Shown here: one piece after another, positions 33,399-52,984 of the stretch
Layout: each line of letters begins with the position of its first letter
Numbering within the stretch: position 1 is the stretch's first letter
Source of the DNA: Candidatus Latescibacterota bacterium
Lineage (GTDB): Bacteria; Latescibacterota; UBA2968; UBA8231
Assembly: GCA_965221775.1 (NCBI GenBank)
Contig: CBDCSU010000004.1
Coordinates: forward strand, 672,001 to 736,000
Length of the DNA stretch: 64,000 nt
Direction: 5' to 3'
Program-made: the position numbers and the translations under genes
Notes under the pieces: model-generated
Database searches by the model: none
Seen by the model: only the letters and a program-made list of their open reading frames with translations
What the model was told of the DNA's origin: nothing

Positions 33399-33421
33399 GG
33401 GACGCGGCCGCACCGAGGGGG

Positions 33422-36109
33422 CTACGGGCCCAGGTACACCGTCTTCCGCACGCTCTCCAATCCGCCCTCGAGATAGAGGGCGATGAAATAGACTCCCGAT
33501 CCTCTTTCCCGGGGGGTCCACTCGAACCGGCTCACTCCCGCGCCGAGGACCTCGTCCACCAGTACTTCCTCAAGCTGGCCAAGGGTGTTGTAGACCTCGA
33601 GGGTAACCGCTTTCGGGCTGCCCAGAGTGAGATCGAGCCCAACTGTAGAGAAAGACGGATTGGGATACGCCTCTGACAGATCGAACTCTCTGCTCCCGAG
33701 GGGCCCGTACACGCTGTTGACCTGACCCGGGGTCCCCCCCTCCTCCAAGGAAGCCAGCCACTGAAGGGGATCGGCATTGTCCCCTCCAGGGCCACGCAAC
33801 TCCAGCGTGGTACCATCCCTGCGAATCTCCTCCGGCCACGGCCAACGGTCCGAATAGGTGACGGAGTCGACCAGCCGTCCCTGGCGGTCGTAGAGGCGGA
33901 CCCGCTCTCCACTGCTTCGGAACCCGAATTCGAAGTCTCCCACACAGTCCACCCCCAGAAGCGCTTCCAGCGCCCCCCCATCCTGACACAGCACGAGGAA
34001 CCCGCGCGGCAGGACAACCGTGCCATGGGGAAGCACGAAGGAGTGCTGGTCATCGTCATCCTGCAGGTACCACCCCGAGAGATTCACGATGGCATCACTC
34101 GGGTTGTGGAGTTCGACCCAATCTCCCGTATCCAGGTCATCCGCGGAGTGGTAGTCTATCTCATTGATCACGACACCGGCCTGCACCAGACCGACGGAGC
34201 GGTCCTGTCGATTGACGCGAGCCACGATCGTTCCCAGGGCCGGCGTGAGCAGCTTCATCGTGTCGCCAAGGGCGATGTCGAAGAAGAGATCCCCCAGTAT
34301 CCGGTCACCCCCCAAAGAGTCCGTAGCCGCCGCCCTGTCCGTGGTGAGCAGGAGGTCGGCTCCCGCAGCAATCTCAGTCCCCGGTGGAAACATGAAGCGG
34401 TTGAAGTACTCCCCGGACTGGAAGCTGCAATAGGAAAGATCCAGCCTCGACTCGCCGGTATTGGCTATCCTGACGGAATGCTCCTTGCCCCTTCGCTGAG
34501 GGTCCTCGATTCGCAGGTGCCGATAGTCCTCGATACCGGCGTTGTTCACATTCAAGGCGAAGGTCTTCGTAGCCGTGTAGTTGATGTAGTACAGGCCATT
34601 GTGGGGATACCTGTACTCTCCCGCTCTGAAGCAGTAGGGAACGAGGCCGGTGTACCCCTCCGGCAAGCGCAGACGGTTGCCGTAGACGAGATCTCCCGCC
34701 AGCAAGTCATCATGCTGGCCATCGTCGAAGAGGACGAGTTCCTGCACCGTAATCGGCTCCCCCCGAGTCCCGTAGGAGGACAAGTCCGTGACGTACTCGA
34801 CCACCAGGCTCTGGGGTTCTGGAGAAGTGGCGCGAAAGACCACGCTTCGATCCTCGCCACGGGGTGAGGGAAATGGATTCGAACAGTACAGATTCGTCAG
34901 GGGTCTTGTCTCGAAGAATCTGAAATCCGTCAGGAACGACTTCCTCGCCGCCAGGAAGTCCTTCACGCGTCTTACCTCCATGTCGAATTCCGCGTTGGTC
35001 CCGACCTTGGCCGGATCCCGGTAGACGTCCGATCTGATCAGCTCGTACGTCAGGTCGATCTGCGCTTCCAAGGCGTCGAAGCCGTAGTCGATGACGACAC
35101 TCACCTGCCTCCAGAACGACTCTCGCCACTGCTCGTGTTCCATCAGCCTCCGAAAGAGCAGATGGTTGCTGAGGAATCGACTCTGGAAGATCGTCTCATA
35201 GTATGGCCGGTATTGACCCGTCCAGTGGTTGCCGAAGGAGCTGTCCTGATCCCAGGGGAATATCCGATGGCGATTCTCCTTCGGGTCGAAGAACAGCAAG
35301 GTGTTCTTCGTCAGAGAATCGAAGCTGGAGATCGAGTAGGCGACGGCGAAGAACCGAAGCACGTCTTCCACGTCCAGCAGGAGAGGCGCCTGCTCTTCAA
35401 AGTCCTCATGGCTCAGGTAGAACAGCTGGTTCAAGAGTCGCTGGACATCGGAGTAATCCGAGTCATCCCCTACTTTCTTGTTCCAGGTGGAACGGTAGCT
35501 GTCGTAGTCCAGTAGGGGTGCGGTGCTGCCCCCGTGATCTTCGGACTTGTAGAGGTCACCGCCTTCATGGCCGTAGCGGCGCAGGAAGTCGCGATTCGGC
35601 TCTTCGAGATGGACAAAGACGCCCATGTACTGATCGTTTACGATCAGGTTGACGTGCCTGGCATTCGGAGCTGCATGGCCGAGGAACTGATACAGCTTCA
35701 TGGCAAGGGTGTTGCGCATCAGCGAGATGTCTCTGTACTCGGCGTTGAGATTGAGCTCCTTGCTTGCGAACGGATTGGATCGATCTTCAAACCAGACCTT
35801 CCAGCTCTTCTTTGGAAGAGTCCGGACCGTGGCGCCGCGGAATCGCACCTCGCACTCGTAGCTCTGTCCTGCCCAGAGCATCCGGGCAGGATAGCGAACC
35901 GCGCTGCGGGGAGAGCCGTACAGGGCCTTCAGATGGCCGGGATCGATAGTCAGACGATAGACGGGCAGGTTGAACTCCTGATCCTGGGCGTGCAGGCACA
36001 TCGCCTGCATGCTCGAGAGCAAGCAGGCCCAGAGACTCAGGGCCGGGAGGTTCTCCCTGAACCTGGACACGCCGGTCGGACTCTTCCGCGGATCAGACCG
36101 CAACGTCAT
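33422..36109 (-). CDS. secreted CotH-family kinase with choice-of-anchor-X-like motif, lamin-tail domain and FlgD/T9SS-type tail
   Basis: RFRG..R..PKKSWKV, D.SLMRN, YMGVF...E, KN, FPWDQDSSFG; LFDDGQHDDLLAGD; VVINEIDY..DWVELHN; AYPNP; GGGGAG RBS. Confidence 0.88.
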   Translation of the reverse strand: MTLRSDPRKSPTGVSRFRENLPALSLWACLLSSMQAMCLHAQDQEFNLPVYRLTIDPGHLKALYGSPRSAVRYPARMLWAGQSYECEVRFRGATVRTLPKKSWKVWFEDRSNPFASKELNLNAEYRDISLMRNTLAMKLYQFLGHAAPNARHVNLIVNDQYMGVFVHLEEPNRDFLRRYGHEGGDLYKSEDHGGSTAPLLDYDSYRSTWNKKVGDDSDYSDVQRLLNQLFYLSHEDFEEQAPLLLDVEDVLRFFAVAYSISSFDSLTKNTLLFFDPKENRHRIFPWDQDSSFGNHWTGQYRPYYETIFQSRFLSNHLLFRRLMEHEQWRESFWRQVSVVIDYGFDALEAQIDLTYELIRSDVYRDPAKVGTNAEFDMEVRRVKDFLAARKSFLTDFRFFETRPLTNLYCSNPFPSPRGEDRSVVFRATSPEPQSLVVEYVTDLSSYGTRGEPITVQELVLFDDGQHDDLLAGDLVYGNRLRLPEGYTGLVPYCFRAGEYRYPHNGLYYINYTATKTFALNVNNAGIEDYRHLRIEDPQRRGKEHSVRIANTGESRLDLSYCSFQSGEYFNRFMFPPGTEIAAGADLLLTTDRAAATDSLGGDRILGDLFFDIALGDTMKLLTPALGTIVARVNRQDRSVGLVQAGVVINEIDYHSADDLDTGDWVELHNPSDAIVNLSGWYLQDDDDQHSFVLPHGTVVLPRGFLVLCQDGGALEALLGVDCVGDFEFGFRSSGERVRLYDRQGRLVDSVTYSDRWPWPEEIRRDGTTLELRGPGGDNADPLQWLASLEEGGTPGQVNSVYGPLGSREFDLSEAYPNPSFSTVGLDLTLGSPKAVTLEVYNTLGQLEEVLVDEVLGAGVSRFEWTPRERGSGVYFIALYLEGGLESVRKTVYLGP

Positions 36110-36863
36110 CTCCCCTGCCGATTCGTTCCAGACAGCTGTCGATGACGTAGCGGTACTTCGAGTATCCGCGCTGCACCAGGGAGAAGCGTTTCACCAGGTC
36201 CAGGGCCCAGAAAGGCACCAGGGACTCGGTCTTGATCTCCACGACGACGGGAGAGCCCGCCCACTGCGCGGTGACCTCGTCGTCGTAGTAGCTCATCTCC
36301 TCGTCCCGGCTCCACAGGTCGTATGAACCGCTCATCAGCCGGTAGCGCATGGCGCGGTCGAAGGTTATGCGGCCGTAGGCGTCGACCTCGCTCACGTAGG
36401 GCTCCCGCTCATAGCGCACGTGAAGGACCGGTTCGGTACCGTACAGGTGGTGCAGGTCGACGAAGGAACGGGGCATGGTCTCGTGGCGGGGCGACGTGCG
36501 ATCCTCCCTGGCCACTTGAAGCACCCCGGGCCACTCGCTCGTGGCAATGCGCTCGCGGACCTTCCAGACGGTGTGGCTGTGCCGGTACTTGACCTCGAGG
36601 GTAGCCGAGCCGGCTTGGCCGGTTCCGTAGTAGCGGACCCTCGGCTTGAAGCGCAACAGCTGGCGTAGCCTGGTGTCGTTGTAGAAACGCAACCCCGGAG
36701 TGTCCATGTACACGCTGTTCACCGTGTAGTGTGCCTGCTCCGCGGGGAGGTTGGCGTCGAGGGTGAACAGCGGTTGAATGAACTGGCGGATCTCCGCAGC
36801 CAGTTCCTCGGTCACGGTGTATTTCAACTCGTACCGGTGGATGGGAGAGAGGTCAATCGCCAT
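36093..36863 (-). CDS. VTC-domain polyphosphate polymerase
   Basis: RYELKY, YTVNSVYMDT, RFKPRVRYY, LEVK, YEREPY, RITFD, VVEIK, SKY. Confidence 0.9.
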   Translation of the reverse strand: MAIDLSPIHRYELKYTVTEELAAEIRQFIQPLFTLDANLPAEQAHYTVNSVYMDTPGLRFYNDTRLRQLLRFKPRVRYYGTGQAGSATLEVKYRHSHTVWKVRERIATSEWPGVLQVAREDRTSPRHETMPRSFVDLHHLYGTEPVLHVRYEREPYVSEVDAYGRITFDRAMRYRLMSGSYDLWSRDEEMSYYDDEVTAQWAGSPVVVEIKTESLVPFWALDLVKRFSLVQRGYSKYRYVIDSCLERIGRGDDVAV

Positions 36864-38163
36864 GGCCCCTCGCCTGCCGCGGCAGCGACTGCGGACCGCC
36901 GATCCCCAGCTCGTAGTACAGGAAGTAGAGGGCGTGGGACAGATTGCGCTCGCCCTCGGCGATGGCGACCCGTGCATCCATGATCGTGCGCTCCAGCTCC
37001 AGGATCTCGTCCGCCGGCACCGTGGGATGGTCGTGCGTCCGGACCACCACGAGCGACGCGGCCTGGATGATGGTTTCGGCCTCCCGTCGAGTCAGGTTGC
37101 GGGCGAGCAACGCCTCGGTGTAGTCCGAGAGACCCTCGCAGACCTCGTCGGCAATGCGCTCCCGAACCGATTCCGCCTCCCGCTCGCTCTCCGACACCGC
37201 AAGGGAGAGGCCGGCGAGGTTGTCCGCATTGCGGTTGAACAGAGGGAGCTCTACCCCGAAGGTCAGCTCGTGCCAGTCGTCTTCGGCCCTCTCGACATGT
37301 CGCGACATCTCCAGGAAGGACAACTGCGGCAGCAGCCGCCGGCTCTCGAAGTGGCGCCGGTCGAGGGCGAGCCGATGCCTCTCCTCCGCCAGCCGAAGCT
37401 CCGGGCGGTTGGCCCAGGCGAGGGCCACGAGCTCTTCCTCACTCCCAACGATCTCCGGAAGCGGCTCGGCGGCCAGCTGGATCCGCGCAGAGACGCCCGT
37501 CAGGCGCCGCAGCCTGCGTTCCTCCTCCCGCAGCGCATGCAGGCTTCGAAGGTGGGTCTGCCGCGCCTCGGCGACGGCGGTCCTGGCCTTGGTGAAGTAC
37601 ACAATCGACCGCCGGCCGAGATCGACCATGGTCTCGATCTGGGAGATCCGCCGGCTCTCGTTGTCGATCCGCCCGGCTGCCAGGCGTGCCAGCTCAGCGT
37701 ACATGGTGAGGTCGGCGCAGGACCGGCGCACCCGCGAGGCCAGCCAGTGCCGTCCGCGGATCGCCTCGGCCCTGCGCTCCCACATGGTCACCTGCTTCCG
37801 CTGTCTGCGCATCCTCGCTTCGCCAGGTGCTGGCGGACGCCAGCGGATGCCGATCTCGAGCTCGTCGACTCGGGCCCTCCCGCGCCGGGCGGCCAGGTTG
37901 CGCACGCGGATCTCGGGATTGTCGATCCAGTCGAGGGAGCGCATGCGGTACGTGCGGAGATCGGCCTCCGACTCGAGCAAGCCAACGCGGGGGTTGTTGC
38001 GCAGACCGATGGCCACCGTCTCTTCGATGGTCAGAGTCAGCTCCTCCCTGCCGCCGCCGGCGGCCCCCGGGTCCTGGCCGCCCTCGCTCGGGGCCGCAGT
38101 CGAGCAGAGGCTGACGCCGAAGGGGACCAGCACAGCCGCGAGAGACCGGCCGCCGCGCTTCAT
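36853..38163 (-). CDS. TolC-family outer membrane efflux protein
   Basis: signal peptide; LTIEETVAIGLRNNP, NRPEL, LPQLS, GVELPLFNRN. Confidence 0.8.
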   Translation of the reverse strand: MKRGGRSLAAVLVPFGVSLCSTAAPSEGGQDPGAAGGGREELTLTIEETVAIGLRNNPRVGLLESEADLRTYRMRSLDWIDNPEIRVRNLAARRGRARVDELEIGIRWRPPAPGEARMRRQRKQVTMWERRAEAIRGRHWLASRVRRSCADLTMYAELARLAAGRIDNESRRISQIETMVDLGRRSIVYFTKARTAVAEARQTHLRSLHALREEERRLRRLTGVSARIQLAAEPLPEIVGSEEELVALAWANRPELRLAEERHRLALDRRHFESRRLLPQLSFLEMSRHVERAEDDWHELTFGVELPLFNRNADNLAGLSLAVSESEREAESVRERIADEVCEGLSDYTEALLARNLTRREAETIIQAASLVVVRTHDHPTVPADEILELERTIMDARVAIAEGERNLSHALYFLYYELGIGGPQSLPRQARGHGD

Positions 38164-39215
38164 GGGCCCGCTCTCCCGAGCACGGAGGATCGATCGATGA
38201 AGCCCACGCGCACAGACTCACCAGGCAGCAGAAGGTGACCGGCCTCGAGGACGACGCGGACCTTCCGGGCCCACAGCATCTGCCCGCGAAGCCACAGCCG
38301 CTCCGGCATCGGTGAGTACCCTGGATGGACGAAGTCGATCCGCCCCCGGGCGTCGAAGTCGCCCGACCGTCTCGACATCACTTCCACCGCCTGGCCGACC
38401 TGCAACTGCAGGTCCTCCGTCTCCGGGACGTAGACTTCCACCACGGAGGCCTGGGCACTCTCCACGGTGACGATGGGCAGGAAGGCGTCGACCGTACTGC
38501 CCGGCAGAGCCAGGATCCGGGAAACCAGGCCATTGGAAGGCGACCGGACCGTTCGATACTCGATGCGCTGGTCGATGAGCGTGATCGACTGACGGACCTC
38601 GTGGATGCGCTGCAGGCGGTCTCCGAGAAGTGAGGTCAGGATACTGTCGCCGAAGGCGGCCGAATCGTCGCTGCCGAGGTGCACCACTTCGGGCCGGATG
38701 AGCGCCGACTGTTCGGCGACGGACCGCGCCAGGACATCGCGGCGAATGGTCATGCGGGTCAGATCGCGGTCATGGCCCAGGCCGGCCTTCTCCGCGGCCA
38801 CCAGCGCCTCGATCTCCCGGCTGAGGGCATCGAGCTCGGCTTCCTCCGCCTGTACCTGGGCGTATCGCTCGGACACGCGCAGCCGCAGCAGGTCGTACTC
38901 GACGTGGTAGCGGCGCCGGTCCGCCGCCGCGATCGACTCCAGGACGGCCAGCTCTTCCGCACGCAGCCGCCTCTCCGCCGACAGGTCCGACACGTCCAGG
39001 CGAGCCAGGACCTGTCCGGCCGCGACGGCCTGGCCCACTGCGGCGTGCATCTCGTGGATGGTTCCCCCCTCGCGGGCCCCCACCGACTGCACCGTGGACA
39101 CGACGGTGCCCACCAGGTACGGATCGACCTGCCACTGCCAGTAGCCGTAGACGGCCGCCATCACGGCCACCGCCCACAGGGCACGGAAGGAGTTCCTCGT
39201 CAGCCAACGCTTCAT
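38160..39215 (-). CDS. HlyD-family periplasmic adaptor
   Basis: N-terminal TM; lipoyl halves VGQAVAAGQVLARLD and VRSPSNGLV; coiled coil; LLPGESV. Confidence 0.85.
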   Translation of the reverse strand: MKRWLTRNSFRALWAVAVMAAVYGYWQWQVDPYLVGTVVSTVQSVGAREGGTIHEMHAAVGQAVAAGQVLARLDVSDLSAERRLRAEELAVLESIAAADRRRYHVEYDLLRLRVSERYAQVQAEEAELDALSREIEALVAAEKAGLGHDRDLTRMTIRRDVLARSVAEQSALIRPEVVHLGSDDSAAFGDSILTSLLGDRLQRIHEVRQSITLIDQRIEYRTVRSPSNGLVSRILALPGSTVDAFLPIVTVESAQASVVEVYVPETEDLQLQVGQAVEVMSRRSGDFDARGRIDFVHPGYSPMPERLWLRGQMLWARKVRVVLEAGHLLLPGESVRVGFIDRSSVLGRAGP

Positions 39216-39218
39216 GGG

Positions 39219-39899
39219 CTACACCTCCACTGCAGAGGTGTGGTTCATGAAGGTCAACCCGCGAAGGCCCTCGATCCGTCCCAAGGCCTCGATCAATCGC
39301 GTCGAGTCCGCCTCCCGGACGAGCTTGACCTGGTATGTGCAGTCCACGAGATCGCCCTGGGCCACGTCGCGCATCGTCACCAGGCCGAAGGTCCGCGGTA
39401 TCTGCTGAAACACCTGGGCCACCTGGGCGGCGAAGTCCGGCGCCGCCGGGATCTGGAAGCGCACGAGTCCATCGAACTTCATGCGCGTGCCGAAGAGAGA
39501 GGAGTGCATGAGCACGGCGGTGGTACAGAACAGGGCGGTGGCGAGGGTGGCAGCGATGTAGCTCTGCACCCCGCTGGCCACGCCCGCACCGAGAGCGGCG
39601 AAGAGGAACACCAGGTCCCGGGGATCGCGCAGGTTGGTGCGGAAGCGGATGATCGCCAGCGATCCCACGATACCGATGCCCCTGGCCACGTTGTCGCCGA
39701 TGGCGATCATCAGCAGACAGGTGATGAGGCTGCCCAGCCCCATGGTCTCCATCAGACCCCGCGACCAGGACAGGCCATGGAACGTCCACTCGTACACCAT
39801 TGCGATCGTGCTCGACAGGCAGAAGGCGAATACCAGGGAGAGCAGCACCGTATTCCAGTGGAGCTTGATCGTCCCGAAATCGAGCAGCAGACTGTCCAT
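39219..39899 (-). CDS. DUF4956 family membrane protein
   Basis: IGDNVARGIGIVGSLAIIRFRTNLRDPRDLVFLF; AAAGGAG RBS before ATG 39899. Confidence 0.9.
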   Translation of the reverse strand: MDSLLLDFGTIKLHWNTVLLSLVFAFCLSSTIAMVYEWTFHGLSWSRGLMETMGLGSLITCLLMIAIGDNVARGIGIVGSLAIIRFRTNLRDPRDLVFLFAALGAGVASGVQSYIAATLATALFCTTAVLMHSSLFGTRMKFDGLVRFQIPAAPDFAAQVAQVFQQIPRTFGLVTMRDVAQGDLVDCTYQVKLVREADSTRLIEALGRIEGLRGLTFMNHTSAVEV

Positions 39900-39935
39900 C
39901 AGCTGGTCTCCTTTGGCGTCGTGCCACGTGTGGCA

Positions 39936-39951
39936 TGCAAGAATTGTGCCG
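39936..39951 (-). promoter_or_regulatory. sigma54 -24/-12 promoter of the DUF4956 operon
   Basis: minus strand CGGCACAATTCTTGCA = GG-N10-GC, matches TGGCAC-N5-TTGCW; 36 nt upstream of the ATG. Confidence 0.8.
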
Positions 39952-40068
39952 TCCACAGGGCCGCCTGCCGCAGCACCCGCCACCGGCCAGTCTCTGCCCG
40001 CACCCCCGACTGTGGGCCTGCAGAGGCAGGGCGCATCGGAGCTCTCCGGCTCTCGGGACAACCGCCTC

Positions 40069-40125
40069 TTCCGCTTTCCTGGACGGGCACTCGGCCCAGT
40101 GGGGGGTCAGTCCGATTCTCCGGAC
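40069..40125. promoter_or_regulatory. putative enhancer (bEBP) boxes
   Basis: GTCCG-attctc-CGGAC at 40110-40125 and degenerate TTCCG-ctttcc-TGGAC at 40069-40084; a third weak copy at 40044-40059. Confidence 0.6.
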
Positions 40126-40398
40126 CGGTGCTCTTGACCCATCCGCCAAGGGACGCACCCAGCTGGCACGGGGCATTGAAGACCGCCGGCCGCACCGGTC
40201 CGGCGCGGCCAAGGGCAGGAGATCAGGGTGCTGGCGCTATCGGCGCGCTACGAAGGAGAGCGCCGAGCGCTTCTCAAGAGGCGAGTACTCGCGCCGAGGG
40301 GCGTACGAGGAACCAGCTTCACGGCATGCATGGGGCTGCAGGAGGACGAGCGGGTCGAGGACGACGCAGAGGTCGCGTCTCCCCGGGACTGGCGCCAA

Positions 40399-45680: not shown

Positions 45681-47578
45681 TCGAACAGTCCCACCAGGTC
45701 GTCCCTCCCCAGCATTCTCGCCAGGACCGCAGCCCTGTGGGCATTCTCCGCGGACAGCCCGCCGCGCCGCGCGATGCGCAGCATCTCCACCCAGGCCTGT
45801 CCAACCGTCACCGGCACCAACACTTCGACCACGGCGCCGGGATCGACCTGCAGACGCTCGACGTAGTCGGCCTGGCCGGGACGCAGGACGTGCAGCTTGT
45901 AGGTCCCGGGCAGGAGAGTCGAGAGGCGGATGGGCAAACGGTCGCCGAAGCGGTTCTCCTCGGTCGCCTCCTGAAGGAAGAGCCCGGCCTCAAAGGCGAC
46001 CTCATCCCCCAGATCGAGGGTATCGACCCGCGCTCTGACGCGCAGTCGGGCCGGCTCCTGCTCGAGGAGGATCCGCACCGTGGTTTCGTCGACCACCTCG
46101 ATACGCTCGGGGGCGACCGGATAGCCGACCCCGTACTGAGCCGCCCGCAGCTGCAGCAGCGTCAGGTTCGCCCGACCGCGGATCAGGCGCTCGTCGAAGA
46201 CCACGAGGCCCCTTGAATCCGCCCGGCCCAGCAAGAGATCCGCGGCCCACAGCTCGATACCGGGCCAGGGTACCCCCTGCCCGCCGACCACGGTCACTGC
46301 CACGGGCTTGGGCTCGAACACGACCCGCAGATCGTAGACGCCCGGCTCGCGAGACTCGGTGGCAAAGCGGCCCCGCTCGAAGGCGAGCCCCAACTGGACG
46401 AGGCTGATCGCTTCGAGTTCGTCGGGGGCCAGTCGCTTTCTGACCCGCACCCGCCCCCGGCGGTTCGTGGTGCCGGCCGCCTCTCCGTTGAGCAGGACGT
46501 CGACGTCGGGGAAGAGCCGCCCGGAGGTGTCCAGCACCTCGATGGTGAACAGGTTCTCGGCCGGGCGCAGCAGAACCGACCTGTGGATGCGGCCCGGACG
46601 GAGCATCTCCACCACGGGCGAGGTCGGACTGGCTTCGTACCCGGGCCGCACCACGGCGAAGGTGTGGCGGCCAGGCTCCACGAGAAAGACCCCCGGGGTC
46701 ACTCCGAGGGTGTCGCCGTCGAGCACGACGATCGAGCCGGGGGGGTCGGAGTCCACCTGGAGGAGGGGCGGCACGATCGAAAAGCTGCGCACGGCCTCCT
46801 CATTCGACAGCCGGGGCCCCTCCCCGTCCGGGTCGGTCACCCGGACCGCGACCTCCCCGAGGCCGACGTGACCATCGCCGTCTTCATCGCGGCCCGTCTT
46901 CAGCTCCTGGAGCAGGCGCGCAGTGAACCCGCCGTCCACGGCGGGCCGGCGGCCGACTTCGACCACGCCAGCGCTCTCCGGAAGGAAGTCCCCCCGGTGT
47001 CCGCCGGGGGTGAAGCCGTCGTACTCCCGGTCGTCCGCCGGCGAATCGGGGCTGGTGAAACCCTTGCCGCCCATGTCCCCGCTGTACGAGGCGTCGATGA
47101 CCGCGCAGGTCCGAGTCGTTCTCAGGCGCTGGAGGAACTGGCCTATCTCGTCGTCGCGCAGGAAGCTCTCCCCCGTCGCCCCCTGGGCGTCAAAGGGCAA
47201 GAGGCACTCGTCGTACTGATCGACCTGCTCGTCGAGAAACAGATCGTCCTCGAGGCGGGAACCGCGCCCCGAGAAGTAGAACAGGAACAGATCGTCCCCG
47301 CCCACCTGGCTGATGAGCGCCTGAAAGGCCCGATGAATGCCCTCGTAGGTGGCGGCCGAATCGGTGAGAGCCACGATGCGGTCGAACCCGCCTTCAACCG
47401 TCAGGAAGCGCTGCAGAGCGCCGACTTCGGACACCGGGTGCTCCAAGGGCGGCACGCCCGATCTCTCGGGATAGGCCGCCACGCCCACCAGCATGGCCCA
47501 GCGTTGAGCGCTCCAGGAGGCTTGACACAGACCCAGGAGCAGGACCGCCACAGCCATTCCCCTCCGCCGGCCGCCCAT
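45677..47578 (-). CDS. secreted peptidase C14 (caspase-like) pseudo-protease with PEGA and further beta domains
   Basis: signal peptide; RWAMLVGVAAY, FYFSGRG (His->Arg), DECLLPFD, IDASYSG (Cys->Ser); PEGA LQVDSDPPGS..GVTP..PGRH. Confidence 0.82.
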   Translation of the reverse strand: MGGRRRGMAVAVLLLGLCQASWSAQRWAMLVGVAAYPERSGVPPLEHPVSEVGALQRFLTVEGGFDRIVALTDSAATYEGIHRAFQALISQVGGDDLFLFYFSGRGSRLEDDLFLDEQVDQYDECLLPFDAQGATGESFLRDDEIGQFLQRLRTTRTCAVIDASYSGDMGGKGFTSPDSPADDREYDGFTPGGHRGDFLPESAGVVEVGRRPAVDGGFTARLLQELKTGRDEDGDGHVGLGEVAVRVTDPDGEGPRLSNEEAVRSFSIVPPLLQVDSDPPGSIVVLDGDTLGVTPGVFLVEPGRHTFAVVRPGYEASPTSPVVEMLRPGRIHRSVLLRPAENLFTIEVLDTSGRLFPDVDVLLNGEAAGTTNRRGRVRVRKRLAPDELEAISLVQLGLAFERGRFATESREPGVYDLRVVFEPKPVAVTVVGGQGVPWPGIELWAADLLLGRADSRGLVVFDERLIRGRANLTLLQLRAAQYGVGYPVAPERIEVVDETTVRILLEQEPARLRVRARVDTLDLGDEVAFEAGLFLQEATEENRFGDRLPIRLSTLLPGTYKLHVLRPGQADYVERLQVDPGAVVEVLVPVTVGQAWVEMLRIARRGGLSAENAHRAAVLARMLGRDDLVGLFE

Positions 47579-47583
47579 GGGAC

Positions 47584-49614
47584 TCACGGCTGCTTGAGAC
47601 GGTACTTGCGGATCAGGTCGTAGAGGCGGCTGCGCGACAGGCCCAGATCGCTGGCCACGATTTCCAGCTGCCAGTCCTTCTCCTCGAGCTTGTCCAGGAT
47701 CCACTTGCGATCGAATTGCTCTCGGGCCTTGCGCAAGGTCAGGTCCCTGTCGAGGTCGAGCTCCGCCGCTTCCCCGGGCTCCTTCTGCAGGCGGCCCCAG
47801 AGATGGAGGACCTGCAGGCGCTCTCCCCCGGCCATGACCCGGGCGCTGGTCAACTGATTCTCCAGCTCGCGGATATTCCCCGGCCACTGATAGCCTCTGA
47901 GCAGCTCCATGGCTGCCGGGTCGATCCCGGCGGGGTAGTCGGCCAGGAAGTGCTCCACCAGCAGCGGGACATCGATGAGCCGCTGACGCAAGGGCGGCAG
48001 GGGGATGACCAACACGTAGAGGCGGTAGAACAGATCGGCTCGGAACCGCCCCTCGGCCACTTCCTTTTCCAGGTCCCGGTTGGTGGCGCAGACCAGGCGC
48101 ACGTCCACCGGGCGCGGGTGCTCCTCCCCCACCCGCTGTACCTCCCCCTCTTGCAGCACCCGCAACAGCTTCACCTGGGTGGACGGGCTGGTCTCGCTGA
48201 TCTCGTCGAGGAGCAGAGTGCCCCCGGTCGCTGCCTCGAACAGTCCCTTGCGATCCTCGAAGGCCCCGGTGTAGGCCCCCTTCTTGTGACCGAACAGTTC
48301 GCTCTCGAGCAGACTCTCGGTGAGGGCGCCGCAGTTGATGCCGAGGAACCGCCCGTGGCGCCGGGCGCTCGTGCGGTGGATTGTGCGCGCCACCTCCTCC
48401 TTCCCCGTGCCCGTCTCACCGTGCACCAGTACGGTGATGTCCGACTCACTCGCTTTCTGCATGAGGACGAAGACGCGACGCATGGTGCGGCTCTGACCGA
48501 TGATGTGGGGGAATGGCTGCTCCCCCTGGGGCACGGGTTCGACCTGGGGCAGATGCACACCCCCGCCCGCCGGAACCGGAAACTCTTCGGCTCCGGTTCC
48601 ACCCCGATCCTCTGCGCGCCGGAGGGCTTCTTCCAGCAGTCTGTTGCGAATGCGGCAGAGACCATCGTCCCCCCGGCGAATGGCTCCCAGCAGTTCCAGT
48701 TGGGTAACCAACGGGGAGGTGCGGTCGTGGCGCGGTTGCTTTCTGCCCTCGAGTAGAGCTCTGAGCCACTGGGAGCCCTCGGCAGAACGCGTGAGACCCG
48801 CCACGACCCGCTGGAGATTGTCGTCGCCGCGGCTGAGCAAGCGCTCCGCTGCCTCTCCGACCTTCAGGTCGGGATCGGCTCCGAGGAGCACACAGAGGCG
48901 CGCCGTGAGATTGGGGTGCCCCTGGGCCCACTCGTGGACCGGGCCGGTGAGAGCCCCCCCTCTGGCGTCGGCTCGCTCGAGGAGTTGCAGCATCTGCCCA
49001 ACCCCCTCGATATCGAAGTCGGTGGTGTAGACCTCCTCGCTGATGTTGAAGGGCGACAGACCGCTTTCGGGAGCGATGAGGGTTCGCGGATCCGTGGCCC
49101 CGGCAAGGACGAAGACGTAACGCTCGAACTCGGGCTGGGTAGCGCGTTCGTTGTACACCGTGCGGATGGTGCCGAAAAAGCCCTCCCGCCAGGGCTGGGG
49201 AACCGCCTCGAACTCGTCGAGACTCACGACGATGCGCTTCACCCCTGCGCAACCCGCTATGGTCTTGAGGTCCTGGTAGAACCCGATCGATTCGGCGCCG
49301 GCCTGCACCGTACTCCGCTCCGCCACGGACAGGGCCCCGGCAATGCGATCACCGACAAAGCCGTAGAGCTGGGCACATCCGGCGTCTTTCACCGGGGTCA
49401 GGTCGATCGGCACCGAGACGTACATATCGGCTGACAGACGGCGGTGCAGGTGGTACAGGAGGCTCGTCTTGCCCGTCTGGCGGGCCCCCAGGACGGTCAC
49501 GTAGTGGCCGCGCCGGACCAGTTCCAGCACTTCGTCGTCCACCGGTCTTTCCACGTAGAGGCTCTGCTCGGGATCGGCGATGGGGCCGCGCGTCTGGATC
49601 TTCCTGAGTGCCAT
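47584..49614 (-). CDS. AAA_35/STAND-like NTPase fused to sigma54-dependent activator and Fis-type HTH
   Basis: LYVERPVD, GARQTGKT, LDEFE, SPFNI, W.QGHP.LT; then GETGTGKE, ESELFGHKKGAYTGA, LDEISE, FRADLFYRL, WPGNIRELEN, LGLSRSRLY. Confidence 0.9.
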   Translation of the reverse strand: MALRKIQTRGPIADPEQSLYVERPVDDEVLELVRRGHYVTVLGARQTGKTSLLYHLHRRLSADMYVSVPIDLTPVKDAGCAQLYGFVGDRIAGALSVAERSTVQAGAESIGFYQDLKTIAGCAGVKRIVVSLDEFEAVPQPWREGFFGTIRTVYNERATQPEFERYVFVLAGATDPRTLIAPESGLSPFNISEEVYTTDFDIEGVGQMLQLLERADARGGALTGPVHEWAQGHPNLTARLCVLLGADPDLKVGEAAERLLSRGDDNLQRVVAGLTRSAEGSQWLRALLEGRKQPRHDRTSPLVTQLELLGAIRRGDDGLCRIRNRLLEEALRRAEDRGGTGAEEFPVPAGGGVHLPQVEPVPQGEQPFPHIIGQSRTMRRVFVLMQKASESDITVLVHGETGTGKEEVARTIHRTSARRHGRFLGINCGALTESLLESELFGHKKGAYTGAFEDRKGLFEAATGGTLLLDEISETSPSTQVKLLRVLQEGEVQRVGEEHPRPVDVRLVCATNRDLEKEVAEGRFRADLFYRLYVLVIPLPPLRQRLIDVPLLVEHFLADYPAGIDPAAMELLRGYQWPGNIRELENQLTSARVMAGGERLQVLHLWGRLQKEPGEAAELDLDRDLTLRKAREQFDRKWILDKLEEKDWQLEIVASDLGLSRSRLYDLIRKYRLKQP

Positions 49615-49639
49615 GGATGCTCTCTTCGGTGGCTGGTGC

Positions 49640-52600
49640 CTACGCAGAGGCAAGGTCCCGGGAGAACCCCGTTCCGGGCTTCACTTGTTCGATGGCCTCG
49701 TCGATGTTCTTCACTCTGTGGAGGATTTCCGGGAAGGCCTTGGCGGTGAAGGCATAGGGGGGACGATCCGTCTCCAGGATGGCGCACATGTGGAGATTGG
49801 ACAAGGCCGTGTCCAGAGCCGCTCCCGGAACCTCCAGGCCGGCGCGCCGCAAACCCTCTTCCAGCCCTTCCCGCGACAGCCCGGGGCCGCCAGGCGCCTC
49901 GGCCATGACCAGGGTCACGGTGCGTTCGAGGGGATCGCCCTGGCCCCAGATGGTCTCGATGAACTCGGCCTGGAACTCGCCCGAATCGAGCACGCTCTGG
50001 CAGTGGTACGGGGTGACCCGCCGGCTCTGCTCGCGGGCCATGCGGCGCACGAGCCGGTCGCACAGGTACTGGATGATGCGCGGATGGCAGGAGGAGACAC
50101 CGAGAATCCGTCCCACGAGGTCTTCGGCATCGACCAGCTCTATGTCCATCAGCTCCATGGGCTCGACGACGATGCGCCGGGCATTGGCCGGATCGAGATA
50201 GCGCAGAGGCAGGGCGTCACAGAAATTGAGCATGGGCGAGGCCAGGTCGTGGAGCTGACCGTGGAGAATGCGCTCACCGCTGAACACGAAGCGGCACTTG
50301 CCCTCTTCCGACAGGGCCCTGAAGGTCTTGAAGAGGAGCTCGTCGTGATGGGTGTCAAAGCGCAGCAGGGCGTCCATCTCGTCCATGAGGAAGACGATCG
50401 TCTTCTCCTCTTCCTCGTATAGCCGGGTGATGAGCTGGTGGAAGCGCTCGGGCTCCTCCCCCTCCACCTGCAGGCCCCAGTTGCTGCGCACGTGGGCGAA
50501 GAAAGCCTGGTAGTTGGTCACCGCCTGATAGTTGGCGTAGAAGGGCCGGTAGTCGCTGGCGGGAAGCCTGAAGGTGCGGTACACCTTCTGCAACACGGAA
50601 GTCTTGCCGATGCGGCGCCCCCCGACGATGCCGATGTTCTTGGTATGGAGCGTCTGGACGATGGTCTTGATCTCCTCTTCGCGGCCGAAGAAGATCGTGT
50701 CCGGCACAGGTCCCGTCGTGACATAGGGAGAGACGACGATGAGATCGACCTGTTGCAGCACCGGGCGCATGAAGACACGGTGGCGGAAGTGGTCGGTGGA
50801 AGCGGCGATCCTCCTGATCTCCGCCTGGCTCAGAACTATGAAGTCGTATCCCAGGCCCTGGGCCTGGGTCCTGATGGTGAAGCGGGCCTCCAGCTCGTTC
50901 AGGTAGACCACCACCAGGGCAAAGCGGCCGATGAGCCCGAAGGACTCCATCAAGGTCCGCAGATGGGACAGGTCCTCCGCCTCGAAGACCGGGCGCTGGA
51001 GGAAGATCAGGGGAAAGGGTGATGGGATCTTGGCGCCCCGCAGCGATGTGGTGTGGACGACAGTGCCCCAGAAAGGCCCACTCCGCCGGCCCGCTTCCTC
51101 GTCCACGGTGAAGCCCAGGGTCCTGCACAGCAGGTCGGCCCCCTGTCCCGCGGCCTCGGCAAAGGCCCGGAGCGCGGACGGACGGCTGGCGTTCAGCAGG
51201 CCGAGCCCCTGTCGCCAGTGCTCGTCGAACTGCCGCAGAACCTGGCGCTGCGCCGGGGCAAAGGCGATGTGCTCGCCGTCGACCTCCAGGTCGAACTCCT
51301 CGTGTTCGGCCATGTAGCGCTGTCCGGCGTACGAGCGGTGGATGCGGGGAATGCCCCCCAGGTGAAACCGGCCCACCGATCTCCCATCCTCGTGCGGGCC
51401 GGTCCCCTGGTCGAGATCGTCGTTCCACACTCCGAGGAGCCCTTCCTCGATCTGCCGGTCCCAATTGGGGTAGCTGCGCCGCCGGTCCTCCTTCACCTGC
51501 CGCTGGCGCCGGATGCGGTACCCCAGACAGGCGGCGACCAGCAGGGCTGCCCCGCTGCCCGCCACGATCCGGTCCCAGGGCCGCGCGGTGGGCGGCGGCT
51601 TCAAGCGTGCCCGGACGGGCTCCTGGCGGTTGGAGCCATCCACGGTGAGCTCCTTCTTCCAGACCGCCTCTCCCTTGCTGACCCGCAGGGTGTGGGTGCC
51701 CGGTTCCAGGAAGACCTCCACCGGCGTCGTCAGGTCGACCAGGCGGTCGTCGATCCACACCTGGGAGTGGAGGGAGTCGGAATCGATGACCAGGGTCGCA
51801 CCGGCCAGGGGCAGACTGCGGAACAGGCGATTGGCCGGCTGCAGACGGGGCCGTGCCGTCTCTCGGAGCCGGCCCAGCTCGTGCAGCGACTCGTACACCT
51901 CGCCCAACCTCACCACGTGGTCGGCCTCCCGCAGCTGCGCGGCCAGAGGCACGGTGAACACGCCCTCCCGGATCGCCTCGGCCGGACCGCCGGCGCTGAG
52001 CACGGCGGCGTCTGCCGGCAGGTAGTCGGTCCGGGTGATGCCGTCCAGGAAGCCGGCTTCCGCCATTTTCTCCAAGGGGCTCGTCACACCCTTGTCCGAC
52101 AGCCCGTCGCCGGTGTACCCGGCGTCGATGGCGACGACCGTGTAGCGCCCCCGCAGTCTGCGCAACTGGCGCCCCAACTCGTCGTCGCGCCAGTACGTGT
52201 CCGTCTGTCCATGGACGGCATCGACCAACAGCAGGCACTCGTCGAGCCGGTCCGGTTCCATATCCGGATAGAGGTCGTCCCTTGTGCGTGTGCCGCGGCC
52301 TGAGAAATAGAAGAAGACCAGGTCCTCCTCCCCCACCTGGTCGGACAGACGGGCGAAGAGCGTTTGCAGGGAGGCCCGGGTGGCCTCGGAGTCGACCAGG
52401 CTGCTGATGCGCTCGGGGTCAAAGGCGGCGCCCTCGATCAGGGCCTGCCGCACGAGTTCGACATCGAGCGGGGCTCGCTCCAGGGGTTGGAAGCCCGAGT
52501 CGGGACCATAGGCTCCGACACCGACCAGAATGGCCCAGCGTTGGCGGAAGGAGAGGTGCTCGTACTGGCTGCTGGCCGCGGCATCGGCCAGCGGCAGGGC

Positions 52601-52666
52601 CAGGATCAACGTCAACACGCCTGTCAGGCGGCACCGAGGGCCTGGGACGGCAAGTCCCTGGGTCAT
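49640..52666 (-). CDS. membrane receptor-like protein: exported pseudo-caspase and PEGA, one TM helix, cytoplasmic alpha/beta domain and STAND-type NTPase
   Basis: signal peptide; FYFSGRG, IDAGYTG; TM at ~51511-51570 followed by RIRRQRQ; SPYVTTGPV..FFGRE, GGRRIGKTS, LMDEMD, HPRIIQ; GGAGG RBS before ATG 52666. Confidence 0.85.
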   Translation of the reverse strand: MTQGLAVPGPRCRLTGVLTLILALPLADAAASSQYEHLSFRQRWAILVGVGAYGPDSGFQPLERAPLDVELVRQALIEGAAFDPERISSLVDSEATRASLQTLFARLSDQVGEEDLVFFYFSGRGTRTRDDLYPDMEPDRLDECLLLVDAVHGQTDTYWRDDELGRQLRRLRGRYTVVAIDAGYTGDGLSDKGVTSPLEKMAEAGFLDGITRTDYLPADAAVLSAGGPAEAIREGVFTVPLAAQLREADHVVRLGEVYESLHELGRLRETARPRLQPANRLFRSLPLAGATLVIDSDSLHSQVWIDDRLVDLTTPVEVFLEPGTHTLRVSKGEAVWKKELTVDGSNRQEPVRARLKPPPTARPWDRIVAGSGAALLVAACLGYRIRRQRQVKEDRRRSYPNWDRQIEEGLLGVWNDDLDQGTGPHEDGRSVGRFHLGGIPRIHRSYAGQRYMAEHEEFDLEVDGEHIAFAPAQRQVLRQFDEHWRQGLGLLNASRPSALRAFAEAAGQGADLLCRTLGFTVDEEAGRRSGPFWGTVVHTTSLRGAKIPSPFPLIFLQRPVFEAEDLSHLRTLMESFGLIGRFALVVVYLNELEARFTIRTQAQGLGYDFIVLSQAEIRRIAASTDHFRHRVFMRPVLQQVDLIVVSPYVTTGPVPDTIFFGREEEIKTIVQTLHTKNIGIVGGRRIGKTSVLQKVYRTFRLPASDYRPFYANYQAVTNYQAFFAHVRSNWGLQVEGEEPERFHQLITRLYEEEEKTIVFLMDEMDALLRFDTHHDELLFKTFRALSEEGKCRFVFSGERILHGQLHDLASPMLNFCDALPLRYLDPANARRIVVEPMELMDIELVDAEDLVGRILGVSSCHPRIIQYLCDRLVRRMAREQSRRVTPYHCQSVLDSGEFQAEFIETIWGQGDPLERTVTLVMAEAPGGPGLSREGLEEGLRRAGLEVPGAALDTALSNLHMCAILETDRPPYAFTAKAFPEILHRVKNIDEAIEQVKPGTGFSRDLASA

Positions 52667-52732
52667 GGCCGCCTCCGCGTGCCGGCGTGGTCCGAGTCCG
52701 AGGGTGAGGAGGTCTGCATGTTCAGCCAAGCT

Positions 52733-52748
52733 AGCAATATGCGTGCCG
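52733..52748 (-). promoter_or_regulatory. sigma54 -24/-12 promoter of the receptor operon
   Basis: minus strand CGGCACGCATATTGCT = GG-N10-GC, matches TGGCACG-N4-TTGCW. Confidence 0.8.
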
Positions 52749-52821
52749 GCGACAAACCGCTCGAAAACGTCCAACGGCGGGGCATGTAGCGTGCGGCGGC
52801 CAGCCTGGCTCGCCGGACTTC

Positions 52822-52877
52822 ATGCGGTTTTCTGGACAGGGCAGCCCCGGATCGGTCGTCTGTCCGATTTTCCGGAC
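52822..52877. promoter_or_regulatory. putative enhancer (bEBP) boxes
   Basis: (T)GTCCG-attttc-CGGAC(A) at 52862-52877 and degenerate ATGCG-gttttc-TGGAC at 52822-52837. Confidence 0.62.
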
Positions 52878-52984
52878 AGCCGCCGCTCGGGCTTGACCGT
52901 TCTTGCGGAAACGGCCTGTATCGGGGCATGCGGTGTGCCCCACCGCGTCGCCGGAGATCAGAGCCTGCTCCCTGCCAGCAAGCC

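Follow-up and report, generated by a model that had tools for sequence, protein, structure and literature searches.

Ten genes on the minus strand of a Candidatus Latescibacterota genome raise the question of whether a membrane receptor, a sigma54 activator and a putative export cassette that are encoded side by side form one regulatory system. They lie within a stretch of 64,000 nucleotides (GenBank assembly GCA_965221775.1, contig CBDCSU010000004.1, positions 672,001 to 736,000), referred to here as the window and numbered from its first base, and make up an accessory island of 19.5 kb. The genome (G000), that of a sponge-associated member of the Latescibacterota, measures 5.36 Mb. The genes form two tightly packed blocks, which we call operon 1 (G1 to G5) and operon 2 (G6 to G10). 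A first-pass annotation of the window had proposed that an envelope signal, sensed by two dead caspase domains, is passed from a membrane NTPase to an NTPase-bearing sigma54 activator, which would autoactivate operon 1 and induce operon 2. The promoters, the upstream boxes, the activator and the dead caspases of this wiring held up and a contact between receptor and activator is predicted, but the general system did not: the broad claim reduces to lineage-specific regulatory capture. Our preferred explanation, to which we give about an even chance, is that a sensory and regulatory module (operon 1) and a captured cassette (operon 2) came together within a single genus of Latescibacterota living with sponges, under the control scheme set out below.

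Open reading frame (ORF) calls place ten co-directional minus-strand frames between 33422 and 52774, with neighbours inside each block overlapping or sitting a few bases apart. With starts corrected for five of them (G1 ATG at 52666, G2 at 49614, G3 at 47578, G6 at 39899 and G9 at 36863), ORF calls and Pfam matches agree with the two operons first described, and Pfam recovered every domain named in that description. The island also encodes its own sigma54 activator, as claimed, and no histidine kinase or receiver family was matched by Pfam among its ten proteins. All ten genes are under purifying selection, with ratios of nonsynonymous to synonymous divergence (dN/dS) of 0.14–0.35.

The evidence for a common control of the two blocks lies at their heads. 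A sigma54 -24/-12 element (cGGCACGCATATTGCT, 52733–52748, minus strand) is located 67 nt upstream of the G1 ATG, and another (cGGCACAATTCTTGCA, 39936–39951, minus strand) 37 nt before the start codon of G6; an AAGGAG ribosome-binding site precedes that ATG. Both carry a single mismatch to TGGCAC-N5-TTGCW and have their GG and GC doublets ten bases apart. The strict pattern GGCAC-N5-TTGCW is found at only 21 sites when both strands of the 5.36-Mb genome are counted, and the island operon heads supply two of them, which bears out the near-consensus promoters of the first-pass annotation. A search for sigma70-like promoters in the island gave none (1.4 expected). The genome carries one rpoN gene (206.8 bits) and about 15 strong sigma54 activators.

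Upstream of each element we found a tandem pair of boxes, all on the minus strand. Box A of operon 1 (52862–52877) is the 16-bp palindrome GTCCGGAAAATCGGAC, proposed as an activator site, and box B (52822–52837) a degenerate copy, GTCCAGAAAACCGCAT, 40 bp downstream. At operon 2, box A (GTCCGGAGAATCGGAC, 40110–40125) is the second exact match of the genome and is followed 41 bp downstream by box B (GTCCAGGAAAGCGGAA, 40069–40084). The 5.36 Mb thus contain the palindrome GTCCGGARAATCGGAC (16 bp) in exactly two copies, one at each island operon head, so that the two operons do share the upstream boxes attributed to them. When up to two mismatches were allowed, the palindrome GTCCGGA(A/G)AATCGGAC gave nine genome matches versus one for the reversed control pattern. 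Comparison with two congeners that carry the island (G160 and G165) showed that these elements are retained within intergenic DNA that otherwise abounds in indels: the -24/-12 elements of both operons are conserved, box A of operon 1 shows 0–2 changes amid indel-rich flanks, box A of operon 2 is identical in both, and its box B is kept in G165 and carries one change in G160.

A box matrix built from twelve sites of the three congeners was used to scan for same-strand pairs 37–44 bp apart. It returned three tandem pairs in the whole genome and none in the reversed-genome control, a count to be discounted to the extent that two of the three loci match the matrix by construction, the third lying outside the training set. 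This third pair is located outside the window, on contig C6 near 1,117,350, and consists of CTGTCCGGGAAACCGGACGA and TTGTCCAGGAAACTGGAAGG, 41 bp apart; it sits 84 bp upstream of GGGCACGCTTCTTGCG, after which comes the ATG of an 808-amino-acid (aa) VIT-VWA-FlgD_ig protein. Box pair, sigma54 promoter and gene together occupy C6:1114738-1117360 (L020:14736-17360). Boxes and -24/-12 elements are kept at all three loci in 3/3 island-bearing congeners, G000 included. Because this additional pair and its sigma54 promoter were found, the regulon counts three promoters rather than two, and the three probably form one G2-dependent sigma54 regulon.

Downstream of the VIT-VWA gene and on the same strand are three small ORFs without a Pfam family and an LRR/PD40 propeller gene. 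In a further congener (G166, contig C271; L025 and L029) the reading frame of the VIT-VWA orthologue breaks near residue 130 and continues in another frame, which could be decay or an assembly error.

The candidate regulator G2 (47584–49614, minus strand, 676 aa) was identified by Pfam and NCBIfam matches (AAA_35 and Sigma54_activat) and by its motifs. It consists of an AAA_35/STAND-like NTPase (residues 1 to ~340, with Walker A at 43–50 and Walker B at 129–134), a sigma54 AAA+ domain, a lid and a putative C-terminal helix-turn-helix. Pfam scores are 47.7 bits for AAA_35 and 229.8 bits for Sigma54_activat (cut-off 20.2). The loop at residue 446 reads GAYTGA; the Phe-to-Tyr variant of the GAFTGA loop stays active. 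As for the C-terminus, the alignments to the NCBIfam models for NorR and AtoC extend as far as residue 674 of the 676, and the G2 orthologues P0002 and P0003 carry PF02954.

Fusion of an AAA_35 domain to a sigma54 domain is rare: it was seen in 3/30 relatives in a search of 5.8 billion proteins and in 1/150 best representatives, out of 6374 matches, among 1.84 billion proteins. Other close relatives of the G2 N-domain carry TIR, CHAT, SpoIIE, winged-helix or phosphoesterase domains. Within the phylum, the N-domain is present in 3/168 genomes, all of one genus (3/10 species), and two public contigs that carry it are titled Gemmatimonadaceae and Latescibacterota metagenome-assembled genomes.

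The proposed partner of G2 is G1 (49640–52666, minus strand), a single-pass receptor of 1008 aa with a signal peptide. A periplasmic part made of Peptidase_C14 (33.8 bits, cut-off 21.4) and PEGA is followed by a transmembrane helix (367–385), a juxtamembrane domain of ~215 aa and a STAND-like NTPase (AAA_22, 33.1 bits, above its cut-off) with Walker A at 682–689 and Walker B at 758–763. The alignment contains no invariant polar residue in the juxtamembrane domain, which speaks against a first impression of a nuclease-like alpha/beta core. G3 (45677–47578, minus strand, 633 aa) is a secreted paralogue of the G1 ectodomain, to which it is 38% identical; it has a signal peptide, no later transmembrane helix, a C14 domain (45.8 bits, cut-off 21.4), PEGA (51.5 bits) and Ig-like repeats.

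Both caspase domains are dead, as the first-pass annotation had stated. Alignment to the metacaspases 6W8R and 4AFR shows that the SGHG motif reads SGRG in both. At the positions that we take to be catalytic from the metacaspase literature, His is replaced by Arg in 8/8 G1 and G3 sequences from four loci, and Cys by Gly in 4/4 G1 and by Ser in 4/4 G3. Active caspases are ruled out, the His-Cys dyad being lost in both domains of all eight sequences. SGRG is also found in four further C14-transmembrane-NTPase clusters of 35–58% identity. These replacements suggest that a caspase fold with Arg for the catalytic His has been reused for binding.

The cytoplasmic part of G1 (~590 aa) belongs to a family of 62 matches in which it is C-terminal in every member. 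Four clusters carry it behind a transmembrane helix and a C14/PEGA ectodomain (three with a PEGA match, all with SGRG), and four others behind a BNR/Sortilin propeller, three with a single transmembrane helix just upstream and one (P0074) with six. The remaining arrangements are a kinase-FHA part, a NACHT-HEAT region or an N-terminal transmembrane helix alone. The propeller fusions, which come from other phyla, are reminiscent of operon 1, where a propeller protein (G5) is encoded separately.

What kind of NTPase G1 and G2 contain is answered differently by fold and by sequence. The STAND identity given to them initially is supported by the folds of the G1 module and the G2 N-domain, but both miss the curated STAND cut-offs: G1 reaches 23.7 bits for nSTAND1 (cut-off 27.1) and 22.2 for nSTAND6 (27.7), and G2 21.8 for nSTAND3 (27.2). 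Two G1 relatives, P0038 and P0043, exceed the nSTAND1 cut-off with 28.0 and 28.2 bits. The G1 module was modelled with a predicted local distance difference test (pLDDT) score of 90.3. Fold searches, which covered the part beyond the juxtamembrane domain (model residues 1 to ~215), gave for its NTPase the archaeal ATPase 2QEN (Z 23.5, root-mean-square deviation 3.3 over 315 residues), the NLR resistosomes of wheat (Z 19.8) and Arabidopsis (Z 18.3), ORC/Cdc6 (~Z 16) and CED-4 (Z 15.1). With the G2 N-domain model (pLDDT 81.7), Foldseek matched 2QEN, Cdc6/Orc1, CED-4, MalT, NRC, Apaf-1 and Avs3; the MalT structure 8BOB is among the matches of both modules. ORC/Cdc6 proteins match the two modules as well as STAND members do. 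According to the models, both are ORC/STAND-like three-domain NTPases.

The G1 and G2 genes are adjacent in 4/4 loci, including a more distant locus, L019, described below. We modelled a complex of G1 (420–1008) with G2 (1–365). The three scores were 0.59, 0.72 and 0.66 (median 0.66, against 0.00 for the best control), partner pLDDT was at least 78 and at least 74% of the contacts were common to the runs. In the predicted interface the Walker A and B residues of G1 (684–689 and 762–763) lie against residues 148–161 of G2, a segment in which R151 is invariant and R157 nearly so, and the geometry is that of neighbouring protomers in an AAA+ ring. The model supports a mixed NTPase assembly. Two considerations speak against taking it at face value. 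The mark used for such complexes was reached by 58/80 solved complexes and 2/110 mismatched pairs, a calibration that is only rough for this pair since custom alignments were used. Moreover, because both modules resemble Cdc6/Orc1 and other AAA+ oligomers, the pass may reflect recall of solved AAA+ rings and not a specific pairing. At the sequence level, the likeness between the G1 NTPase and the G2 N-domain is confined to the P-loop region (E-value 0.002). We rate control of G2 by G1 through direct NTPase contact at slightly short of an even chance. More tentative still is the fuller proposal that the receptor NTPase and the activator N-domain form a mixed assembly in which nucleotide-dependent oligomerisation at the membrane, in place of phosphorylation or a small-molecule domain, licenses the sigma54 ring; in sponge symbionts this module would have taken over a mobile polyphosphate/CotH export cassette and a VIT-VWA adhesin gene and so built up a host-facing surface regulon.

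We then turn to what operon 2 might do. Its five genes, all on the minus strand, encode a DUF4956 membrane protein (G6, 39219–39899, 226 aa, Pfam 40.6 bits and transmembrane scan), a HlyD-type periplasmic adaptor (G7, 38160–39215, HlyD_D23 48.6 bits for a cut-off of 30, with the NCBIfam RND_mfp model at 62.4 bits, under its cut-off), a TolC/OEP-type outer-membrane factor (G8, 36853–38163, OEP 28.7 bits, cut-off 22), a VTC-domain protein (G9, 36093–36863, 99.5 bits, cut-off 23) and a CotH kinase-like protein with two lamin-tail (LTD) domains and a type IX sorting domain (G10, 33422–36109, CotH 184.8 bits). In G10 the CotH domain can be aligned over 48–396 with 5JD9, the CotH of B. cereus (E-value 1.5e-31), and keeps the FD..N and PWDxD stretches, the catalytic residues being those that we presume for this domain. 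Kinase activity of CotH proteins is described in the literature. The catalytic tunnel of Vtc4, the polyphosphate polymerase of yeast, belongs to the VTC domain family, and yeast VTC couples polyphosphate synthesis to membrane passage.

Export of polyphosphate by this cassette, suggested by its gene content, is nevertheless doubtful. In its favour, the periplasmic adaptor and the outer-membrane factor of a tripartite exporter are both present (G7 and G8), no ABC, RND or MFS inner-membrane transporter was matched by Pfam among the ten island proteins, and the transmembrane scan leaves DUF4956 as the sole inner-membrane candidate of the cassette; a fused DUF4956-HlyD form also exists (P0241). Against it, the fusion search gave no VTC-DUF4956 fusion, a blank that is weak evidence, and comparison of G9 with solved structures by sequence gave only a chance-level match. 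The alternative is that VTC acts on another triphosphate, that CotH draws on ATP to phosphorylate matrix or coat-like proteins ahead of secretion or in the course of it, and that HlyD-TolC carries another cargo, with a role in extracellular matrix or biofilm. We consider it unlikely as well. The lack of a structural match for G9 is in its favour, as is the form commoner in the phylum: in 12/12 loci examined, the top loci of 41 VTC-positive genomes, VTC is followed directly by DUF4956, with CotH nearby in at least four, and no HlyD or TolC lies between the cassette genes. The same trio has been noted beside Gram-positive pel operons, where a regulatory kinase role was proposed, according to the sections available of Whitfield et al. 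(2020, PLoS Pathog, PMC7112168). On the other side, in the form found here HlyD and TolC stand between DUF4956 and VTC at 63–88% identity across genera, with DUF4956-HlyD fused in one protein and no other inner-membrane transporter in the cassette. A functional study of DUF4956 was not found in the literature searched, which did not extend to supplementary files.

At three loci of other genera (L057, L058 and L059, in G104, G105 and G103) the cassette adjoins an S15-type peptidase gene that is 35–36% identical to the one flanking the island, and two of these three have an unrelated sigma54 activator within ~6 kb.

Are the two operons linked elsewhere? The first-pass annotation had expected linkage and shared boxes in homologous operons, and in the loci read beyond the genus neither was seen. 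The whole ten-gene island is found at the same site in G160 and G165. Five other congeners showed only sigma54-domain likeness to island DNA, and G166 and G167 have an empty site, at which the GMC oxidoreductase gene of one flank directly adjoins the S15 peptidase gene of the other. One contig of a DNA run (X5) joins 33407 to 52986, skipping 19,578 bases, beside island-bearing contigs of the same run, and this joint corresponds to the empty sites of G166 and G167; island-free and island-bearing forms may coexist in one metagenome. Outside the genus, the only more distant locus that could be read (L019, WLWI01000159.1, GC content 62%, 53–74% protein identity) has G1–G5 in the same order, flanked by a divergent sugar ABC transporter and a thiamine pyrophosphate (TPP) enzyme. 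The cassette, in turn, is found at 63–88% identity in four genomes of two other genera, all without operon 1, and G000 itself has a second five-gene copy outside the window (contig C5:704863-715308; 86, 76, 66, 74 and 58% identity). VTC is present in 41/168 phylum genomes and, within the genus, only in the three island bearers.

The C5 copy has neither boxes nor a sigma54 promoter. It is preceded by another CotH-like gene, and a VIT-VWA paralogue (30% identity) lies ~5 kb further.

Gene histories within the island also differ. Synonymous divergence (dS) is 0.17–0.24 for G1–G6 in both congeners and 0.15–0.30 for G6–G9 in G165, versus 0.66–0.89 for G7–G9 in G160 and 1.2–1.3 for G10 in both. GC content is ~72% for the window, 58–70% for 33.4–52.9 kb and, gene by gene, 0.60 (G10) to 0.70, with flanks at 0.727; G10 is both the lowest in GC (0.597) and the most divergent island gene. 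The identity of G10 is 57–59% with the syntenic congener copies and 70% with a copy in another genus (L060). As read from these sequences, the pattern of G10 points to recombination or transfer at the level of the cassette. Because operon 1 can stand alone, the cassette is widespread and the dS values form a mosaic, the cassette is best described as an exchangeable unit that one genus has placed behind operon 1 and given the shared control region.

A number of results weigh against the regulon and against a lasting union of the two blocks, and we gather them here. Boxes and sigma54 element are both missing upstream of five other cassette copies, all without operon 1 (five loci from four genomes chosen for a VTC score resembling that of the window), which speaks against a lasting union but in favour of the regulon; in two of them sigma70-like hexamers were seen by eye. 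Since cassette copies elsewhere lack boxes and sigma54 element, the link between operons 1 and 2 is a genus-level capture. In L019, of which 17.6 kb of a 92-kb contig were in view, no DUF4956, HlyD, TolC, VTC or CotH gene occurs in the 2 kb downstream of operon 1. Upstream of it no box exceeds 9.7 bits, compared with at least 23.9 for the 12 training sites, and an inverted-repeat scan gave nothing comparable. The G2 recognition helix of L019 is almost identical, yet only a weak -24/-12 candidate was found upstream. G166, whose assembly is 83% complete and in 400 contigs, keeps intact boxes and an intact promoter at VIT-VWA, although its island site is empty and the search for the island was negative. 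Within the window the loose sigma54 consensus is not enriched (17 sites versus 16.1 expected), and Pfam did not report HTH_8 for G2 at E-values up to 0.01. The kin genomes are not independent, and co-occurrence in one genus amounts to about one event. Finally, contigs of the metatranscriptome library X20 are 90–95% alike over parts of G1, G2, G3 and G5, with little over operon 2, a likeness that does not show transcription and gives no start sites.

These points bear on a second alternative, namely that the boxes are bound by another host regulator and that G2 acts elsewhere or on its own operon only. It could draw the regulator from the ~15 strong activators of the genome, and would account both for G166, with boxes and no detectable island, and for L019, with G2 and no recognisable boxes. 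Opposed to this are the restriction of the boxes to three places in the genome, two of them inside the island that encodes G2, and the finding that none of the other activators exceeds ~40% identity to G2 over the C-terminal region. G167, an island-free genome in a single contig, has a VIT-VWA orthologue that is 85% identical, and the whole ~230-bp control region is missing; this joint absence of island and boxes fits co-occurrence of boxes and activator. As to G166, its assembly is fragmented, and the 33407–52986 joint suggests that forms with and without the island occur in one DNA run. We regard this alternative as improbable and retain G2 as the likely regulator of the three promoters.

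A third possibility, to which we give an equally small chance, is that G1–G3 are a diverged NTPase-caspase defence module, a kind known from multicellular bacteria, with G2 as transcriptional effector, bringing about a protective change of the surface on phage or predator attack instead of responding to an envelope or host cue. The fusion of close G2 AAA_35 relatives to TIR, CHAT, SpoIIE and metallophosphatase domains would fit, as would the accessory, low-GC and polymorphic nature of the island. The caspase domains also weakly match the 'EACC1-associated' type (31.6 and 44.7 bits) and the PADLOC 'caspase', and PEGA-bearing membrane-proximal STAND systems are described in the available part of PMC7159879. 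These caspase scores, however, are far under the NCBIfam cut-off of 140 bits, and PADLOC matches single domains only and no system model. With the dyads lost in 8/8 sequences and in the four further C14-transmembrane-NTPase clusters, no proteolytic effector is left, and the outputs comprise an exporter and secreted proteins of adhesin-like type, with no toxin or nuclease among them. An assembly chimera near 40.2 kb, about which the first-pass annotation had warned, is ruled out, since the junction is reproduced in two congener assemblies and bridged in two independent DNA runs (X5 record 12, 39861–48174, and X8 record 26, 38688–43201).

The outputs of the regulon would include type IX cargo. 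G5 (40399–44082, minus strand, 1227 aa) combines BNR/Sortilin propellers, four HYDIN-type Ig domains and a FlgD_ig C-terminus (27.1 bits, cut-off 27); in NCBIfam it matches F510_1955 with 254.5 bits (cut-off 175) and three choice-of-anchor D domains. The sorting domain of G10 scores 31.5 bits with TIGR04183 (cut-off 23), and in the same genome two PorU and five PorV genes exceed their cut-offs.

The product of G4 (44079–45680, minus strand) has no Pfam family and is probably an outer-membrane barrel with a C-terminal TPR-like part. Its initial description as PorV-like could not be sustained: it scores 31.4 bits with NCBIfam PorV2 (cut-off 325) and 25.3 with PorV_fam (cut-off 90), over residues 36–83 only, and we reject it as a true PorV family member. 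Look-alikes in the ESM Atlas are TPR and UPF0164/PorV/PorP clusters at 0.90–0.93, to be taken as leads only. At best, G4 is a very diverged PorV/UPF0164-like barrel with a TPR tail.

A terminator scan of the island gave 9 sites versus 6.7 expected, all intragenic, and showed neither a terminator between G5 and G6 nor read-through. In the same intergenic region, upstream of box A, a 28-base insertion at 40248 occurs in three independent DNA runs; the congeners have large indels there too, with the boxes fixed. At the other end, the space that separates operon 1 from the divergent S15 peptidase gene contains a further inverted repeat, CCGTTTCCGCAAGAACGG (52897–52914), most of which is kept in G160 and G165, with 2–3 changes located in the repeat centre. 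The island stretch is present in runs labelled sponge, marine and coral metagenomes, from 11 studies, habitats that, as context only, fit a host-facing surface regulon.

Taken together, these results suggest the following scheme. Operon 1 would be a self-contained sensory and regulatory module, in which the periplasmic pseudo-caspase/PEGA ectodomain of G1 probably pairs with its secreted paralogue G3, while its cytoplasmic STAND-like NTPase would touch the related N-terminal NTPase of G2. This contact, through co-assembly or through release from the membrane, could set the timing at which the sigma54 AAA+ ring of G2 forms; we infer the direction and the sign of signalling from G1 to G2, as we do a ligand. 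G2 would then bind the tandem GTCCnGnAAAnCGGAC boxes and open three sigma54 promoters, those of its own operon, which it would autoactivate, of the captured DUF4956-HlyD-TolC-VTC-CotH cassette and of the unlinked VIT-VWA gene. The output could be a remodelling of the surface by three putative type IX cargos (G5, the CotH-LTD protein G10 and the VIT-VWA protein), G10 possibly acting as an extracellular kinase, together with a conduit spanning the envelope, in which VTC would make polyphosphate, DUF4956 carry this presumed cargo across the inner membrane and HlyD-TolC carry it out.

The sigma54/enhancer architecture is textbook, with receiver, GAF, PAS, V4R or FHA domains as modular inputs. In the literature searched, from which supplements and most subscription journals fell outside, we found neither a STAND-like NTPase as input of a sigma54 activator, nor the pairing of such an activator with a pseudo-caspase receptor NTPase, nor the form of the cassette that bears HlyD and TolC. 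If true, a STAND-like input governed by a receptor NTPase would be a new logic, joining the oligomerising switches of STAND/NLR proteins to sigma54 control. The locus also shows regulatory capture in progress, in which a widespread five-gene cassette has been given boxes and a sigma54 promoter and an unlinked adhesin-like VIT-VWA gene has acquired this control region, of 230 bp, as well. For the bacterial VTC-DUF4956-CotH set, so far unstudied, the cassette is a convenient point of entry.

Several known systems share part of this organisation. PspF/PspA and other partner-controlled activators resemble the island in having a receiver-less sigma54 AAA+ protein, upstream tandem sites, autoregulation and a membrane-associated partner, the last as proposed here. 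In contrast to them, the input of G2 is an entire additional NTPase module (AAA_35, ORC/STAND-like in fold) at its N-terminus, and its proposed partner is a related receptor NTPase. MalT, which MalK keeps in check at the membrane, is comparable in that a transcription activator assembles under the control of a STAND-type NTPase. MalT has a LuxR-type DNA-binding domain and works with sigma70, whereas G2 joins its STAND-like domain to a sigma54 AAA+ motor.

For operon 2 the nearest relative is the VTC-DUF4956-CotH accessory set, which, in the sections available of PMC7112168, unites the same three families in one operon. Operon 2 differs from the set as described there by having DUF4956 first, HlyD and TolC before VTC and a sigma54 promoter, and its CotH protein bears lamin-tail domains and a type IX sorting domain. 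The NTPase-caspase conflict systems of multicellular bacteria (Kaur et al. 2020, eLife, PMC7159879), in the portion of the paper available, have in common with the island a caspase, a STAND-like NTPase and a membrane-proximal PEGA domain; the main text of that paper does not contain the terms 'sigma-54' and 'AAA_35', and, unlike the systems presented in it, the island has catalytically dead caspases and transcription as its output. A last parallel, offered as an analogy only, is FecA-FecR-FecI, where an outer-membrane or surface component, a single-pass transducer and a dedicated factor are likewise co-encoded and serve a small regulon. The proteins are unrelated; by this analogy, a sigma54 activator would replace the extracytoplasmic function (ECF) sigma factor, and an NTPase contact would replace proteolysis.

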